Of a DNA stretch of 64,000 nucleotides, positions 38,253-59,338 are shown in pieces. Within the stretch, counting starts at the first letter, position 1. Every line of letters starts with the position of its first letter. The position numbers were made by a program, and so were the translations under genes. The notes beneath the pieces are model-generated. The model was given only the letters and a program-made list of their open reading frames with translations, ran no database searches and had not been told where the DNA came from. This stretch comes from Moniliella sp. 'wahieum' (lineage: Eukaryota): positions 806,001 through 870,000 of the forward strand of contig RSEE01000009.1 of assembly GCA_003971905.1 (NCBI GenBank), given 5' to 3'.

Positions 38253-38909
38253 ATGCCTCTTGTTGGTTCCAAGGCCCCCCTCTTCACCAAGGCTGCTGTC
38301 ATTGACGGCCAGATCTCGGAGGTCTCTCTCGAGAAGAACCTCAAGGCCGGCAAGTGGACCGTGCTCTCGGTATGTCCACTTCTATCCCGCCTCGGTCCTT
38401 GTGGGTATGCTTGCTGACCCGCCATGGCACTTCGTTCCCAGTTCTACCCCTGGCCTACACCTTCGTGTGCCCCACCGAGATGTGAGCTACGGTGCGGAGG
38501 GCAAGGCGTTCAAGGACCTGAACGCTGAGCTCCTGTACGCCTCGACCGACTCGGAGTTCACCCAGCTCGCCTGGGACCAGGCCAAGACCTCGGACGGTGG
38601 CCTGGGTGGCGTGTCGAAGAACGTGGCTCTGGTGGCCGACACGAACCACAGCCTGTCGCGCGACTACGACGTGCTTCTCCCTGACCAGGGCGTTGCGCTG
38701 CGTGGCACCTTTATCATTGACCCGCAAGGCATCATCCAGCATGCCACCATCAACAACGCCCCCGTTGGCCGCAACGTGCAGGAGACCCTCCGTCTGCTGG
38801 AGGCGTTCCAGTTCACTGCCGAGCACGGCGAGGTCTGCCCTGCCGGTTGGCAGAAGGCGCGGACACCATCGACACCAAGAACGCCACGGCCTACTTCTCG
38901 AAGCACTAA
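38253..38909 (+). CDS. TSA1: Typical 2-Cys peroxiredoxin (Tsa1/Tpx1 type)
   Basis: FYPLAYTFVCPTE (peroxidatic Cys), STDS, ALRGTFIIDP, VGRN, GEVCPAGW (resolving Cys). Intron GTATGT..GCTGAC..CAG at about 38370-38441. TATAAAA at about 38184. Confidence 0.9.
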
Positions 38910-47708: not shown

Positions 47709-49097
47709 ATGTCCCATCTCCCTGCTACCGCCGCCTCTGGCGTCCAGGAGGGCCGCGCCAGCGTGGTCCTCGGTGCGCAATGGGGTGACGAGGGCAAAGG
47801 TGAGTTCCTTCCCCTCCTCCTCGCTCGCCTCTGCTGACTGTCGCTTGGTTCTCCAGGCAAGCTTTGTGACATCCTTGCGGGTGCCATGGACGTGTGCGCT
47901 CGCTGTGCTGGCGGCAACAATGCCGGTCACACCATTGTGGCTCATGTGGGCCCCGACAAGGTCAAGACCAAGTTTGACTTTCACCTGCTGCCCTCGGGCC
48001 TGGTCAACCCCCGGTGCGCCGGCTTTATTGGTTCGGGGGTGGTAGTGCATGTGCCTTCGTTTTTCGCTGAGCTCGACACGCTGGAGAAGAAGGGCTTGGA
48101 GGTGAGTGGCCGTCTGTTTGTTTCGGACCGCGCCCACCTGGTGTTTGACTTTCATCAAGTCGTCGATGGCATGAAGGAAGTCGAGCTGGGAGGCAGCAGC
48201 ATTGGCACCACCAAGAAGGGCATTGGGCCAGCGTACGGTTCCAAGGCTTCCCGCTCGGGCCTGCGCGTGCATCACCTGTACGACCAAGAGTTGTTTGCAA
48301 CCAAGTTCCGCAACCTGGTCGAAGGCCGGTTCAAACGCTACGGTCACTTTGAGTACGACACGGAGGGAGAGATTGCGCGCTACCGTGCCTTTGCTGAGCG
48401 CCTGCGCCCGTTTGTTGTCGACGGCGTCACCTTTATCCACACTGCGTTGGCACAGAACCGCCGTGTGTTGGTCGAGGGTGCCAACGCGTTGATGCTTGAC
48501 ATTGACTACGGCACGTACCCCTACGTTACTTCGTCTTCCACAGCGATCGGTGGCGTGTGCACTGGCTTGGGCATCCCCCCCAAACTGGTGGGCAAGACGA
48601 TTGGTGTGATGAAGGCCTACACCACGCGCGTCGGTTCCGGTCCCTTCCCCACCGAGCAGCTCAACGAGGTTGGAGTTCACTTGCAAGAGGTGGGTGCCGA
48701 GTGGGGCGTGACGACCGGCCGTCGTCGCCGGTGCGGATGGCTGGACTTGGTGGTGATGAAGTACTCGCACATGATCAATGGCTACGACAGCCTCAACCTC
48801 ACCAAGCTCGACATTCTCGACGACTTGGAGGAAATCAAGGTGGGCGTGGCGTATTACCACGATGGCGTCGAACTCGCCTCGTTCCCTGCCGACTTGGAGT
48901 TGCTGGCGCAGGTGGAAGTCAAGTACGAGACGCTGCCCGGGTGGAAATCGGACATTTCCAAGATCACCCAGTACGACGAGCTGCCGACCAACTGCAAGAA
49001 GTACATTGAGTTCTGTGAGAAGTTCCTCGGCGTGCCCATTGAGTACATTGGCGTTGGCCCTGGCCGCGAGAGCATGATCCACCGGCAGCAGGCGTAA
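47709..49097 (+). CDS. ADE12: Adenylosuccinate synthetase
   Basis: [13 protein letters not shown] (across an intron at about 47800-47856), [47 protein letters not shown]. Confidence 0.97.
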
Positions 49098-51056: not shown

Positions 51057-54000
51057 ATGGTCGCCGTCCGCGTCGACGCCCTGCCCGTGCAGCCCCAGCA
51101 ACCCGACCTCAACGACCCCCTTGTCGCCCCCCCGCGGGGCGACCACCCCGAGGTGACCACCTCGGCCAACCTGGATGCCAATGGCTTCCACCATGTCGTC
51201 CGCTCGCAAGCTTCCTACGGTGGCGATGCGCTCCCTGCCGCCCAAGGCCTTTACGACCCTGAGAACGAAAAGGACAGCTGCGGGGTGGGCTTTATCTGCC
51301 ACATCAAGGGCAAGCCCAGCCACAAGATTGTGTCCGACGCCAAGTTTGTCCTGTGCAACATGACCCACCGCGGCGCCACTGGTGCCGACGCGCGCGATGG
51401 TGACGGCGCTGGGTGCATGACTGGTATCCCCGACTCGTTTTTCCGCCGCGAGCTCGAGATGGACTTTGGCATCACCCTTCCCGCCGAAGGCCAATACGCG
51501 GTGGGCAACGTCTTTTTCACCCCCAAGGATGACCGCCTGCGTGCGGACCACCAAAAGATCTTTGAGTCGGTCGCTGACTCGGTAGGGCTGCGTGTCCTGT
51601 GCTGGCGGAACGTTAGTGTCGACAACTCCATCCTTGGTCCCGCCGCGCTCAGCAAGGAGCCCAAGATCCTCCAGCCCTTTGTTGTGGCCACGGAGCACTA
51701 TGGCGCCGGATCGGCGCCGGCACAGACAGAGGCTCCGTTTGACGAGAAGAACTTTAATCGCCAATTGTACGTGCTGCGCAAGTCGGCCACTCACAAGATT
51801 GGTTTGGCCAACTGGTTCTACATCTGCTCTCTCTCCCCGAGCAACATTGTCTATAAGGGTCAGCTCGCACCCCGGCAGGTGTACGACTACTATTATGATC
51901 TGCTCAACGCACGCTACGAGTCGCACTTTGCCTTAGTCCATTCCCGTTTCTCTACCAACACTTTCCCTTCTTGGGACCGTGCCCAGCCGATGCGGTGGGC
52001 GGCCCACAATGGTACGCATGCCCCTCTTCGCCTTGGTCTGCTTCCTTGTTACTGACTCCCTGATGCATAGGCGAAATCAACACGATCCGCGGTAACAAAA
52101 ACTGGATGCGTGCCCGCGAGGGCATGTTGCGTTCGGAAGTGTTTGGCAACGACCTTGACCGCCTCTACCCGATTATCGAACCTGGAGGATCCGACTCGGC
52201 TGGGTTTGACAATGTACTGGAGCTTCTGGTCGTCAATGGTGTCTTGACGCTGCCCCAAGCGATCATGCTTCTTATTCCTGAGGCTTGGCAAGGCAAACAA
52301 GACCATATGGAGCCCGAAAAGGTTGCCTTTTACCGCTGGGCGGCTTGTATGACGGAGCCTTGGGACGGGCCCGCCCTGTTTGCCTTCTCGGATGGTCGCT
52401 TCTGTGGTGCCAACTTGGACCGCAACGGCTTGCGGCCGTGCCGGTATGTCATCACTGACGACGACATTATGATTTGCGCGTCGGAGGTGGGCACCATCCA
52501 CATTGATCCGGCGACGGTGTTGGCCAAAGGCCGGCTGCAACCCGGGCGCATGCTCTTGGTGGATACCAAGGAGGGCCGCCTGGTCGACGACAAGGAGCTC
52601 AAGATGACTACTGCCCAGTCGGCCGACTTTGCTGCCTGGCTCGAAGCGCAGCTACTGCATCTCCCTGACATTTGTCGCCGCACCCGGGCCAACGCGCCGA
52701 TCACGGCCGAGCTCGACAGCACCACCCTTAGTACCGATCCGCGGATGAAGGCGTTTGGGTACACCAACGAGCAGATTAGTCTGTTAATGCTCCCCTGGGC
52801 ACGTCTGGCAAAGAGGCGCTGGGCTCGATGGGCAACGATGCGCCCCTGGCGTGCATTGCCGATGCGCCTCGGCAGGTCTACGAGTACTTCCGCCAGCTGT
52901 TTGCTCAGGTTACCAACCCGCCCATTGACCCAATCGCGAAGCGGTCGTCATGTCGCTGGAAACGTATGTCGGTCCCGAGGGCAATCTGCTGGAGATGAAC
53001 CCCAAGCAGGCTCACCGCCTCTTGCTCCCATCGCCCATGCTAAAGATTGAGCAATGAATGCCATCAAGCGCATCCACGAGGCTGTCGACGACTGGAAGAC
53101 AAAGGTGATTGACATTACGTTCCCCAAGGTCGATGGCATTGCGGGCTACGAACGCACGATCGACCGGATTGTGCAGAGGCTAGCGCGGCGATTTCGGAAG
53201 GCTACACCATTGTCGTTCTGTCTGACCGTGCGGTGAGCGAGGACCGCGTCGCCTTGAGCTCACTCGTTGCCGTCGGTGGTGTGCATCATCACCTGATCCG
53301 CAACAAGGCTCGTACCAAGGTGGCTTTGATGATTGAGACGGCCGAGGCTCGGGAGGTGCATCACTTCTGTGCCTTGACGGGCTATGGTGCCGACGCCATT
53401 TGCCCCTGGCTGGCGATTGAAGTGATGGCCAAGGTGCACCGCGAGGGCTTGATCAAAGAGGACATTACGCTCGAGACGGCTGTCGAGAACTGGCTGCACG
53501 GCGTGGATGGCGGGATTCTTAAAGTGATGTCCAAGATGGGCATTTCGACGCTTGCGTCCTACAAGGGTGCCCAAATCTTTGAGGCACTGGGCGTGGACAA
53601 CTCGGTGATCGATCGCTGCTTTGCCGGTACGGCCAGCCGCATCAAGGGTGTCACGTTTGAGCTGTTGGCCATGGATGCATTTGAATTCCACAACCGCGGT
53701 TGGCCTTCTCAGGAAACGGTCCTGCCCCCCGTTTTGGCCGAGAGTGGCGAATACCACTGGCGCGATGGTGGTGAGGCTCACGTCAACGATCCCGTGTCGA
53801 TTGCCAATCTGCAGGATGCGGCGCGGGAAAAGAATCAGTTTGCCTGGGACCAGTATAGCAAGCAGGCCACCCAGTCCGTCAAGGCCACCGCCCTGCGTGG
53901 CTTGCTCGACTTTGACTTTACCAAGGCGCGCCCCATCCCCGTGGACCAGGTCGAGCCGTGGACCGAGATTGTGCAGCGATTCTGCACTGGCGCCATGTCG

Positions 54001-57000
54001 TACGGTTCCATCTCGATGGAGGCCCACTCGGCTTTGGCGATTGCCATGAACCGTCTGGGTGGCAAGTCCAACACGGGTGAAGGGGCGAAGACGCCGAGCG
54101 TTCCATTCCGCTTCCCAATGGGGACTCGCTCCGTTCGAAGATCAAGCAGGTCGCTTCCGGCCGGTTTGGTGTCACGTCCAACTACCTTGCTGACAGCGAC
54201 GAGCTGCAGATCAAGATGGCGCAGGGGGCCAAGCCTGGTGAGGGCGGTGAGTTGCCTGGCCACAAGGTGTCGCCATCGATTGCGCGTACGCGTCACTCGA
54301 CCGCGGGTGTCGGTCTCATTTCCCCCCCTCCTCATCATGACATTTACTCGATTGAGGACTTGAAGCAGCTGATCTACGACCTCAAGTGCGCCAACCCTCG
54401 CGCGCGTGTGAGCGTCAAGCTTGTATCCGAAGTGGGTGTCGGCATTGTGGCGGCGGGTGTGGCCAAGGCCAAGGCGGACCATGTGCTGGTCTCGGGTCAC
54501 GACGGTGGTACGGGTGCGTCGCGCTGGACTGGCATCAAGTACGCCGGTCTTCCCTGGGAGTTGGGTCTGGCCGAGACGCACCAGACATTGGTGCTCAACG
54601 ACCTGCGTGGCCGCGTGACGGTGCAGACTGACGGTCAACTTCGCACTGGTCGCGACTTGGCCATCGCTACGCTCCTAGGTGCCGAAGAGTATGGCTTTGC
54701 CACCACGCCCCTCATTGTGATGGGCTGCATCATGATGCGCAAGTGCTTGGGTGTGGACACGCTGGTGCGCACGCTGGGCGGTGCGACGAAACGCATTGGC
54801 GATATTGCCCTTGGGACACCTGTTGGACGACAGCAACAACCCTGTGCTTGTCATGTCGGTGGGCGATGTGGAAACGGGGGAGATGTACCAGGTTGCATAC
54901 ACTCTTGATGGCGAGAAGCGCTTTGAGTGCACGCCGGACCACATTCTTTCTTTGGCAGCCGTGGGCGTGGAGCCCACGATGGAGAACAAGACGGTCGAGT
55001 TTTACAAGCGCTGCGTGTCGGGCAAAAAGCTGGACCAGGCGGCCGAGCACGCGCCTCGTGTATGATGCACGACCTTGTAACTCTCGGCGATGTCCAAGAC
55101 TTGGACCGCGAAGATGAGGTGGATGAGGAGATTGGGTATGTTATTGGATCTTGTCTCGTGCAGCGAAGGCGTACTGACTCGCATATACTTTAGCTCTGAG
55201 ATGGTTACCAAGGAGTTGCTCAGCGGGCACCGTCACCGTGCCCACGCGACGGGCGCGTCGCCATTCGACCCTCGCAGTTGCGTCCATGACAAGGAAACCG
55301 TCCACGTTTCCTTTGACCTTGGCGTCGCCATGCCCGAGCTTGAGAGCGACCACGGCTCGGACGCTTCGTCGACGGCCCCTGGCACCCCAGCCATCGAGCC
55401 TGCGGCCGACACGGTGGCCCTTGGCCCGGTGGATGAACTGGTGTTGAGTGAAACTGCCAAGGCACCTGCGCCCGTTCGTGCCACCGAGGAGCCCTTCCTC
55501 CGTGTTGGGGCTCAACTGCAAGGCCGCCTTGCCCTTCTCAAAGAGAAGATCCAGGAGGCAGAGTGCTCCTGCGGTGGCCTGCACAAGGTCTCGCTTGAGC
55601 TGGCGTCCGAAGAGCAGGCGCAACTGGTTAACAGCCTCCTCTTCTCTGAGCACCACCACCTTGTTGAGCCCAGCCTCGTTTTGGATGGCGATCGGTTCGA
55701 GGCGACAGCTGAGGACCTTCTCAACCACTCCCACCCCAAGCTCCGTCTTTTCCGCCCTGCCAACCAGGCCGAGTTGGGGCTGGCGCAGGACGATGCGTAC
55801 TTTGTTGGTGCCTGGTTGGGCGATGGAGATGCCCACCGGGCCACGCTGGCCGCTTCGGATGCGGAAATGCTGGTGTGGTTGCACAAGTATGTGGAACAGC
55901 TGAACGCGACGCGTCCCCAGGGCGCGACCGAACTCAAGGTAGTCAGCCGGAAGGTGACTGCGGTTGGGGACCTGGTCGGATCCAATGCGTTTGCTCGGGC
56001 CGACATGTTTAAGCACACGGTTCTTGCCCAAGACTGGAACCCGCTGGAGGCGAAGCTTACCGACCTAGGCCTTCTCGGCACCAAGGAGCGCCGCATCCCC
56101 ATTGAGGCCTTCCCTTCGGCTGAGGGCAAGCGGGCCCTGTTGGCTGGTCTGCTCGACACGGACGGATCCTACCTCCGTTCCAGTGGCCAGTACGTCTTTG
56201 CTCAGGCCGAGGCCACATGGGGCTGGTAGAGGATGTGGCGTTGCTGGCCAAGGAACTGGGCATCTGCACCAGTGGTGTGGCCATGGAGCCGGGGGCTTCT
56301 GTGGTGACGCTGAGTGGACCCGGCCTGGCGCAACTGCAGCCCTACTTGCTGTACGAGCGGAAGCGCATGCCTGCGGTGGCGAGCGACATGGAGGTCGCGC
56401 CTTTGTGCTGACCAAGTTGGCGGGCGAGCGGGAATACCGTGGGGTGGAGGTCTCGGGCGGACACTTCCAGCTGGAGGATGGCTTGGTGGCGCATAACTGC
56501 CACCTCAACACGTGCCCAGTTGGCATTGCCACTCAAGACCCCGAGTTGCGGGAGAAGTTTGCCGGCCAGCCCGAGCATGTGATCAACTTCTTCTATTACC
56601 TTGCCGAGGAGCTGCGTGGGATCATGGCCAAGCTGGGGATGCGTACCATCAACGAGATGGTCGGTCGCTCGGAGCTGCTCAAGGCTGACTATACTGGACG
56701 CAACGTCAAAGCATCCAAGCTGGATCTGAGCGCCATTCTCAAGCCTGCGCATGAACTGCGCCCCGGTGCAGCGACGTACAAGGTGCGTCAGCAGGACCAC
56801 CGTCTCTACGTTCGGATGGACAACAAGTTCATCTCGGAAGCCGAGCCGGCTCTGATGGAAGGTCTGCCCGTTCAAGTTGACTGCGAGGTGGTCAACACGG
56901 ACCGTGCGCTGGGTGCCACCTTGTCGTACCGTGTGTCTAAGTTGTACGGCGAGGAAGGTTTGGCACGAGACACGATCCACATCAATGCCAAGGGCTCGGC

Positions 57001-59338
57001 TGGCCAATCGTGTGGTGCATTCCTTGCCCCCGGTATCACGCTCGAGCTCGAGGGCGACGCGAACGACTATGTCGGAAAGGGCATGTCGGGTGGCCGTCTG
57101 ATCATCTACCCGCCCAAGAACTCGGCGTTCAAGGCAGAGGAGAACATTTTGATTGGCAACACGTGTTTGTACGGCGCGACGACAGGTAATGCCTACTTCC
57201 GTGGCATTGCGGCCGAGCGCTTTGCGGTGCGCAACTCGGGCGCGCATGCGGTGGTGGAAGGTGTGGGAGACCACGGGTGCGAGTACATGACGGGTGGCCG
57301 GGTCGTGGTGCTGGGCAGCACTGGCCGCAACTTTGCCGCCGGGATGAGTGGTGGCATTGCGTATGTGCTGGACATGAACCGCGACTTCTACTCGCGGTGC
57401 AACACGGAGATGGTGGAGCTGGGTCCGGTCAAGGAGCCTCACGAGATTGCCGAGCTGCGCAACCTGATTGAGAACCACCGTCACTACACGGGCTCGACGG
57501 TTGCCGAACATGTGATTCGCGACTTCCACCATCTTTTGCCTCGCTTTGTGCGGGTGATGCCGTACGACTATAAGCGTGTGCTCGAGGAGGAGGCAGCCAA
57601 GGCGGCGGCCGAGAAGAAGCGCTCGAGCCATGTGGACTTGCTCGGAACCCTGTCGCGGCACAGCTCCCAGGTCAGTCTGTTGGAGGAAGAGCAAGCAGCA
57701 GGAGAAGGCGGCCGCCGCCAAGGCTGAGCCGGCCGAAGTGGACATTGAAGATGCGCTGCTGGATGCCGAGAAGGCCAAGACGGCGCTGGCCAAGCTGGAC
57801 AAGTTGCGTGGATTCAAAAAGTACCGTCGTCGTGCGGAAAAGTACCGTCAGCCCAACGTGCGCGCCAAGGACTTTAAGGAACTGTCCAACCGCCTGACCG
57901 ATGCCGAGCTCAAGGTGCAGACCGCGCGCTGCATGGACTGTGGTGTGCCCTTCTGCCAGTCGGACACGGGCTGCCCGATCAGCAATGTGATCCCCAAGTG
58001 GAACGACTTGGTGTTCAACGGGCGCTGGGAAGAAGCCTACTGGAAGCTCATGTCTACCAACAACTTCCCCGAGTTTACCGGCCGCGTGTGCCCCGCGCCT
58101 TGCGAAGGCGCGTGTGTGCTGGGCATCATTGAGTCGCCGGTGGGCATCAAGACGGTGGAGCGGGCGATTATTGACAAGGCGTTTGAGCTGGGCCTGGTCA
58201 AGCCCCAGCCGCCGGTGCACCGGACGGGCAAGACTGTGGCCATTGTGGGTTCGGGTCCGGCCGGGATGGCGTGTGCGGACCAGCTGAACAAGGCGGGTCA
58301 CTCGGTCACGGTCTTTGAACGCGCTGATCGTCCGTTTGGTTTGGCCATGTACGGTATTCCCAACATGAAGCTGGACAAGGGGGTGGTCATGCGTCGTGCC
58401 GAGCTGCTGCAGGCCGAGGGTGTGGACATCCAATGTGGCGTGGAGGTGGGACGGGACGTGGATGCGGCCGAGCTCAAGGAACAGTTTGACGAGCTGGTCT
58501 TTGCCACTGGCGCCACCTGGCCGAGGGACCTGCGTGTGGACGGACGCGATGCCAACGGGGTTCTGTTTGCGATGGACTTTTTGGGCGCCAACACCAAGTC
58601 GCTGTTGGATTCGGGGCTGCAGGACGGAAACTTCTACAATGCCAAGGGCAAGAACGTGGTTGTCATTGGCGGTGGCGACACGGGCAATGACTGCATTGGT
58701 ACCTCGGTCGGCACGCGCACGGCATCGGTGGTCAACTTTGAGTTGTTGCCCCAGCCGCCCGCGTCGCGCGCCGCGACAACCCTTGGCCCCAGTGGCCCCG
58801 CATCTTCCGCACTGACTATGGTCACACTGAGGTGACGGACCACTATGGCCAAGACCCGCGTCACTACCAAATCTCGACGACCAAGTTTGAAAAGGACGAG
58901 GAGAACAATCTGGTTGCCGTGCACACGGTGGAGGTCGCCTGGGAGAAGGACGCGAGCGGCAAGTGGCAGATGAACAAGGTGCCCGGTACGGAGAAGCGGT
59001 GGCCGTGTGAGTTGTGCCTCTTGGCACTGGGTTTCCTCGGCCCAGAGAATGAGGCGATCAAGTCGTTGGAGCTCAAGCAGGATGCTCGCTCCAACATCTT
59101 GGCCGCCGACTCGAAGGGCGCCAGTCCCTTCCGTACCTCGGTGCCGGGCGTGTGGGCGTGTGGCGACGCTCGTCGCGGCCAATCGCTGGTGGTGTGGGCT
59201 ATCCACGAAGGTCGGGCATGCGCGCAGGCGATTGACGAGCAGTTGCATGGTACCAGCCGCCTGCCCTGGGCCGGCTCCATCCCCAAGCGCACTTACCCTT
59301 GGACGAGCAAGGAGGTAGAGTTGCTCCAGCAGGCATAA
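51057..59338 (+). CDS. GLT1: NADH-dependent glutamate synthase (fused alpha+beta subunits), intein-containing precursor
   Basis: Propeptide then [32 protein letters not shown] (intron 52012-52070), [36 protein letters not shown]^[52 protein letters not shown]. Confidence 0.97.
54744..56497 (+). mobile_element. Intein with a LAGLIDADG homing endonuclease in GLT1 (about 567 aa after repair)
   Basis: Interrupts the conserved [14 protein letters not shown]. Block [80 protein letters not shown] followed by Cys+1. Confidence 0.93.
55136..55193 (+). other. Putative 58-nt spliceosomal intron within the intein coding sequence
   Basis: Donor GTATGT, branch site TACTGAC (55172-55178), acceptor TAG. 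Removing it joins ...DEVDEEIG to SEMVTKELL... in frame. Confidence 0.75.

Follow-up and report, generated by a model that had tools for sequence, protein, structure and literature searches.

The stretch analysed here (the window) comprises 64,000 nucleotides (nt) of contig RSEE01000009.1 of Moniliella sp. 'wahieum' (assembly GCA_003971905.1, positions 806,001 to 870,000 of the forward strand). It contains the gene GLT1 for NADH glutamate synthase, which runs from its ATG to a TAA stop at 51057..59338 and was delimited with open reading frames (ORFs), three-frame translations and tblastn comparison with the protein P0002. GLT1 holds one canonical intron, an intein and 11 one-base frame changes attributable to the assembly. 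Inside the intein lies the segment with which this report is concerned, a 58-nt candidate spliceosomal intron in phase 2 (55136..55193), recognised by its signals, its composition and its codon usage. The gene, the introns and the intein parts and motifs described below all lie on the + strand, and coordinates are those of the window.

The canonical intron of the host gene, GLT1-i1 (52012..52070, 59 nt), reads GTACGC..TTACTGAC..ATAG with a TACTGAC and splits the host protein sequence. Its excision brings back HNGEINT, a conserved motif. By three-frame inspection, the one-base frame changes were placed at about 52795, 52925, 53050, 53170, 54088, 54812, 55055, 56208, 56402, 57690 and 58770, corresponding to roughly one indel per 750 nt of GLT1; 9 of the 11 are -1 changes (a base missing). 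Four further genes of the window show contiguous Pfam profile positions on overlapping ORFs in different frames. Because these four unrelated genes carry equal breaks, the window assembly is error-prone and deletion-biased, and the frame breaks of GLT1 are assembly errors and not biology or decay of the gene. With one-base indels throughout the window, a frame change alone is therefore no evidence for an intron. The same caveat applies to every frame-based finding in the window between 1900 and 59000.

The intein-coding region spans 1754 nt in the assembly (54744..56497), from the Cys1 codon TGC (54744-54746) to the codon of the terminal Asn (56495-56497), and is followed by Cys+1 of the extein at 56498-56500. 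It corresponds to the 58-nt segment plus about 566 codons, allowing for a net 2 missing bases. The extein junctions, ..GCIMMRK|C and HN|CHLNTCP, are in frame, leave a continuous extein after removal of the intein and are shared by P0002, P0005, P0007 and P0008. All residues of class-1 splicing are present, namely Cys1, the block B Thr-x-x-His, the terminal His-Asn and Cys+1. Block B itself (TPDHILSL, 54931..54954) aligns with the CTPDH of homologues.

Downstream of block B, a short exon stretch identified by codon usage (55062..55135, frame 0) resembles the F/Y-x-DL-V/I motif of homologues and ends two bases into a Gly codon. This stretch, MMHDLV..EEIG, joins the upstream frame-1 intein only through a one-base change somewhere in about 55020-55062, near 55055, which is most likely an assembly deletion. 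After the 58-nt segment, the downstream intein exon (55194..56208, frame 1) encodes a linker and then the endonuclease domain, and scores 183.1 bits against a hidden Markov model (HMM) of the family. It includes LAGLIDADG motif 1 (GAWLGDGD, about 55795-55830) and motif 2 (LAGLLDTDG, 56137-56169), in which position 210, G211, D323 and G324 are unchanged across 16 sequences. The C-terminal intein part (56205..56497) lies in frame 0 and then in frame 2; it is broken by two one-base changes, at about 56208 and 56402, and is in one frame in P0002. An HMM built from 13 homologous fungal inteins matched the window with model positions 1-39, 28-97, 271-527, 528-564 and 603-638 in frames 0, 1, 1, 0 and 2 respectively.

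Homologues were sought by searching the downstream ORF (55195-56226) against 1.84 billion representative proteins, which gave 111 matches at E <= 1e-3, 26 at <= 1e-10 and 3 at <= 1e-30. The best matches, P0005, P0007 and P0008, are 36-39% identical in the endonuclease region, are flanked by the GLT1 residues MRKC...HNCHLNT and carry inteins encoded as uninterrupted single ORFs. A 16-sequence profile with the window ORF first matched PI-SceI structures (1ef0, 1dfa, 1um2, 1jva and 9cop) at E values from 1.4e-15 to 2.5e-14; the PI-SceI chains aligned over the endonuclease and the C-terminal splicing region had values from 2.8e-15 to 2.5e-14. The four window intein pieces returned 0 Pfam families at E <= 0.1, and relatives of the intein gave Hom_end, LAGLIDADG_3 and Hint_2, all below threshold. 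The family diverges from the Pfam models, and membership rests on the PDB profile match together with the motifs. These comparisons show the element to be a class-1, PI-SceI-like LAGLIDADG intein of GLT1, with predicted splicing and endonuclease activity. Same-family inteins also occur in the Sel1-repeat proteins P0013 and P0023 (..KRAC|LSPETMVRT...VVHN|CTLGD), and another, in P0018, precedes an apparent kinesin motor domain; this distribution suggests movement of the family between non-homologous genes in fungi.

The 58-nt segment reads GTATGTTATTGGATCTTGTCTCGTGCAGCGAAGGCGTACTGACTCGCATATACTTTAG. It begins with the donor GTATGT (55136-55141), contains the branch site TACTGAC (55172-55178), whose branch A at 55177 precedes the last G by 16 nt, and ends with the acceptor TAG (55191-55193). 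With the segment removed, frame 0 continues into frame 1 through a GG|C (Gly) codon, which leads to SEMVTKELL... and both LAGLIDADG motifs; the predicted junction in the spliced mRNA is GAGGAGATTGG|CTCTGAGATGG. These signals and the length had been noted in the initial annotation, together with the likeness to the 59-nt GLT1 intron, and all of them were found as described. Frame 0 does run into the TAG at 55191-55193, as stated there, and three-frame translation confirmed that removal of the segment forms the Gly codon and enters the endonuclease frame.

The strict pattern GTATGT-N20-50-TACTGAC-N5-25-YAG had 1 match on both strands of the window and was seen in 0 of 100 dinucleotide-preserving shuffles, and a looser splice pattern gave 2 matches against 0.64 expected. 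TACTGAC by itself has 4 matches on the two strands, where base composition predicts roughly 6; its count is not above expectation, and therefore the heptamer alone is no evidence and only the full arrangement counts. A loose regular expression for introns matched 65 times in the window. One candidate of this kind (57858-57920, + strand, 63 nt, GTGCGC..CCTGACC..GTGCAG) was rejected as a false positive, as it lies inside GLT1 coding sequence conserved in P0002. Since loose patterns match within conserved coding sequence, they are no evidence for introns.

For comparison, a host reference set of four introns was verified by restored protein continuity: GLT1-i1 and the introns of adenylosuccinate synthetase (ADE12, 47800-47856), of a bleomycin hydrolase-like peptidase C1 (17481-17566) and of a peroxiredoxin (38370-38441, ..WTVLS|FYP..). 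These introns are 57, 59, 72 and 86 nt long, a range that includes the 58 nt of the candidate. Their donors are GTACGC, GTGAGT, GTACGT and GTATGT (GTRNGY), which the GTATGT of the candidate fits, and their branch sites are CTGAC or CTAAC (CTRAC) at 15-24 nt from the 3' end, compared with TACTGAC at 16 nt in the candidate. Host acceptors are CAG or TAG (YAG), and that of the candidate is TAG. Across the segment the frame moves by +1, the shift that 58 nt must produce, while 9 of the 11 error-type changes in GLT1 are -1.

Composition sets the segment apart from the surrounding gene. Its G+C content is 0.448, against a mean of 0.607 (standard deviation (sd) 0.058) for 58-nt windows over 51100-59330. 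This value ties for the minimum of the gene: only 0.12% of the windows are equally low. They lie at three places, and one of these coincides in part with the known intron. The T content is 34.5% against a mean of 20.4%. We also scored the segment with a codon-usage model for which 2574 confidently coding codons of the same window served as training set. The log-likelihood ratios of the segment were -22.7, -7.0 and -13.3 bits in the three frames, whereas 2403 in-frame 19-codon coding windows, scored with one segment left out at a time, had a mean of +8.2 (sd 4.4), and 0.4% of them were at or below -7.0. The upstream flank (55062-55133) scored +10.9 bits in frame 0, close to the 11.3 that 24 codons of coding sequence average, and -21.4 and -48.0 bits in the other frames; 10.9 was attained by 0 of 4698 wrong-frame windows and by 0.01% of 8090 intergenic-like windows. 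Further upstream, 54988-55059 scored +15.7 bits in frame 1, and the downstream flank (55195-55266) scored +5.0 bits in the same frame. Both composition and codon usage thus show the segment to be non-coding, with coding sequence on either side.

P0002, the closest relative found, came from a search that reached proteins of up to 2000 amino acids (aa). It is an uninterrupted 1393-aa ORF of another organism, with the Pfam domains Glu_synthase, GXGXG, Fer4_20 and Pyr_redox_2, and is 72% identical to the window in the intein and 86-93% in the extein (tblastn). A single frame of P0002 covers the region that begins shortly ahead of SSEDVTQELL and extends to the end of GLT1, for which the window needs five frames; the alignments of P0002 with the window abut, leaving no room for introns between them. 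The P0002 ORF starts 8 codons before the acceptor and does not extend into the N-terminal intein or extein. When window frame 1 was compared with P0002 (SSEDVTQELLGGHRHRSH..), 22 of 28 residues were identical from the acceptor on, and 0 of the 8 just before it. A search of metagenome contigs with the alignment of the window and P0002 yielded 100 pattern matches, none of them a relative.

The segment sits in an acidic linker of weak conservation that separates the N-terminal splicing domain from the endonuclease. Counted by hand from RC.. to the GH.H motif, this linker would have 56-57 aa if the segment is spliced out and about 76 aa if it is not, compared with about 50 aa in homologues; a longer intron, discussed below, would leave 32 aa. 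With an HMM of 11 distant homologues, the spliced sequence scored 80.5 bits, unspliced variants 77.6-80.0 bits, a version with a 134-nt intron 78.5 bits and frame 1 throughout 75.3 bits.

From the sequence evidence, we consider it probable that 55136-55193 is a genuine spliceosomal intron of the host type, located in the linker of a PI-SceI-like intein inserted at MMRK|CHLNTCP of GLT1. The layout put forward in the initial annotation, an intron within an intein within a gene, is supported by the intein motifs and junctions, by the non-coding character of the segment, by its match to host introns and by the point at which conservation with P0002 sets in. Several observations weigh against this interpretation. 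At roughly one indel per 750 nt in GLT1, the frame switch could be one more error, and the interpretation itself needs an assembly error near 55055; the frames are as initially described, and for these two reasons the argument drawn from them is weak when taken alone. Low G+C and AT-rich splice signals are not fully independent evidence. The distant-homologue HMM does not separate the spliced from the unspliced readings, because the segment sits in the weakly conserved linker. Finally, the start of P0002 could stem from a contig end or from the start chosen by the gene caller, and the N-terminal intein piece (54736-55062), searched against longer proteins for an ORF upstream of P0002, gave no matches.

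The same evidence was used to weigh other explanations. The 58 nt might be translated as part of the intein linker, in which case the change from frame 0 to frame 1 would be an assembly indel and the splice-like signals a coincidence. Errors are common, with 11 frame changes in GLT1 and split domains in four other genes. Frame 1 has no stop from 55081 on, so that one indel at any position in 55081-55190 would suffice to connect the two frames. The unspliced variants are also only 0.5-2.9 bits lower in the distant-homologue HMM, and linker length varies among homologues. This explanation has to account, however, for a strict splice pattern that none of the 100 shuffles reproduced, for a best frame of -7.0 bits that just 0.4% of the 2403 coding windows attain, for the lowest G+C of the gene and for the drop in identity to P0002 from 22/28 after the acceptor to 0/8 before it. 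It further requires the rarer +1 type of error (2 of 11 cases) and a linker of about 76 aa where homologues have about 50, and we regard it as improbable.

An intron might instead be present and extend further upstream, from a donor GTATGA at 55060 to the acceptor at 55193 (134 nt), which would make MMHDLV..EEIG intronic. GTATGA falls exactly at the end of frame 1 (..AEHAPR|GTA TGA), no frame change near 55055 would be required, and the HMM score of 78.5 bits is near the 80.5 of the 58-nt model. On the other hand, 55062-55133 scores as typical coding sequence in frame 0 (+10.9 bits), the exons would still be one base out of phase, the intron would be longer than any of the four verified in the host (57-86 nt), the donor lacks T at position 6 and the remaining linker of 32 aa compares with about 50 in homologues; these features make the longer intron very unlikely. 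Just as little probability is given to a decaying GLT1 or intein pseudogene with real frameshifts, in which the intron-like stretch would be functionless. Such decay would explain the many frame breaks in GLT1 and in the intein, but equal breaks occur in four unrelated genes of the window, those of GLT1 are only one-base frame changes with no stop codons in the aligned frames, the extein is 86-93% identical to P0002 and codon usage stays typical of coding sequence; this points to sequencing error rather than decay. A split intein or a pair of separate genes was rejected, because a promoter would not fit and the signals present are intron signals.

If the 58-nt segment is indeed a spliceosomal intron, expression of GLT1 would proceed in three steps. 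The pre-mRNA would lose two introns, 52012-52070 and 55136-55193, by the action of the spliceosome. Translation of the resulting mRNA would give a precursor protein whose intein is about 566 aa long. Class-1 protein splicing by Cys1, the block B His, the terminal His-Asn and Cys+1 would then yield mature glutamate synthase and the free endonuclease. Should the intron be retained, 19 extra residues would be added before the stop at TAG 55191, and both the endonuclease and the C-terminal 60% of GLT1 would be missing; the truncation of both products foreseen in the initial annotation would follow from this in-frame stop. Homing by double-strand-break repair would be expected to copy the intron together with the intein, and expression in a new host would depend on recognition by its spliceosome, both expectations following from established homing biology. 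A more far-reaching proposal makes this the first known case of a spliceosomal intron within an intein, acquired once the intein was established in the lineage, common to at least two species (that of the window and the source of P0002) and carried along in homing, with retention acting as a switch for endonuclease and glutamate synthase output. Taken as a whole we hold it to be tentative and rather unlikely.

Known systems offer partial parallels. PI-SceI, the VMA1 intein of Saccharomyces cerevisiae, resembles the window intein in being class-1, with Cys1, His-Asn, Cys+1 and two LAGLIDADG motifs, and is unlike it in host gene and insertion site; a single continuous ORF encodes PI-SceI. Known GLT inteins share with the window element the host gene GLT1 and a full-length organisation with a LAGLIDADG endonuclease, and also the insertion site, judged from the junctions of P0005, P0007 and P0008. 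These homologues are single ORFs, 36-39% identical in the endonuclease region, whereas the window intein holds the 58-nt candidate intron. As far as Table 1 of a 2018 survey of eukaryotes goes, GLT inteins are found only in the ascomycete subphyla Pezizomycotina and Saccharomycotina (PMC5784728).

The closest analogue is provided by genes of the I-DsqI type. According to PMC9548176, I-DsqI of Didymium squamulosum has a 47-nt spliceosomal intron, I-47, inside the homing endonuclease gene of a nuclear group I intron, that is, a spliceosomal intron in the endonuclease ORF of a mobile element, whose expression needs the spliceosome. As described there, the carrier of I-DsqI is a self-splicing group I intron in ribosomal DNA (rDNA) and its endonuclease belongs to the His-Cys box type, whereas the window element is an intein in a protein gene, in which the host protein would also depend on intron removal. 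Being translated in frame with the GLT1 exteins, the window element is not a group I intron homing endonuclease gene in rDNA, and would resemble such genes in its need for the spliceosome. Descriptions of nuclear inteins usually present them as continuous in-frame ORFs, even where the host gene is rich in introns. An example is the Cre RPB2 intein of Chlamydomonas reinhardtii, which according to PMC1635734 appears as one uninterrupted ORF although its gene has 20 introns. This nuclear intein thus has spliceosomal introns of its gene outside it, whereas the window intein would have one inside. Work on Prp8 and Anaeramoeba discusses introns close to empty intein sites rather than within inteins. 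The passages on inteins in PMC1635734, PMC1508164, PMC10710043 and PMC5784728 mention no intron inside an intein. No report of such an intron was found in full-text searches of the literature, and fungal intein papers in subscription journals could hold one. The nested arrangement would combine an intein and a spliceosomal intron, both of known kinds.

Should the intron prove genuine, RNA splicing and then protein splicing would both be required to make an essential metabolic enzyme. The intein would have been in a nuclear lineage long enough for intron gain, which argues for vertical persistence over recent invasion, and the element would be expressed only in hosts whose spliceosome recognises these signals. 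Such inteins would be overlooked or cut short in protein-based surveys and by automatic gene callers, and counts of eukaryotic inteins may therefore be too low.

Some further features of the window were recorded. Pfam identified a gene of the SUR7/PalI family, a fungal family; this gene and the short introns with CTRAC branch sites indicate that the host is a fungus. The split Pfam domains outside GLT1 are Peptidase_C1_2 (profile positions 18-252, 254-353 and 351-438), PMT (15-206 and 215-244), Pyr_redox_2 (91-191 and 189-278) and Glyco_hydro_30 (1-64 and 89-267), each spread over separate ORFs, and the broken genes sit at 1.9-2.7, 6.0-7.4, 12.6-13.6 and 17.5-18.9 kb. Within GLT1, the window and P0002 differ at 58700-58725 (+ strand; P0002 reads GTSVRHGAASVV) inside a near-identical stretch, and this mismatch may be a compensated indel pair rather than true substitutions.

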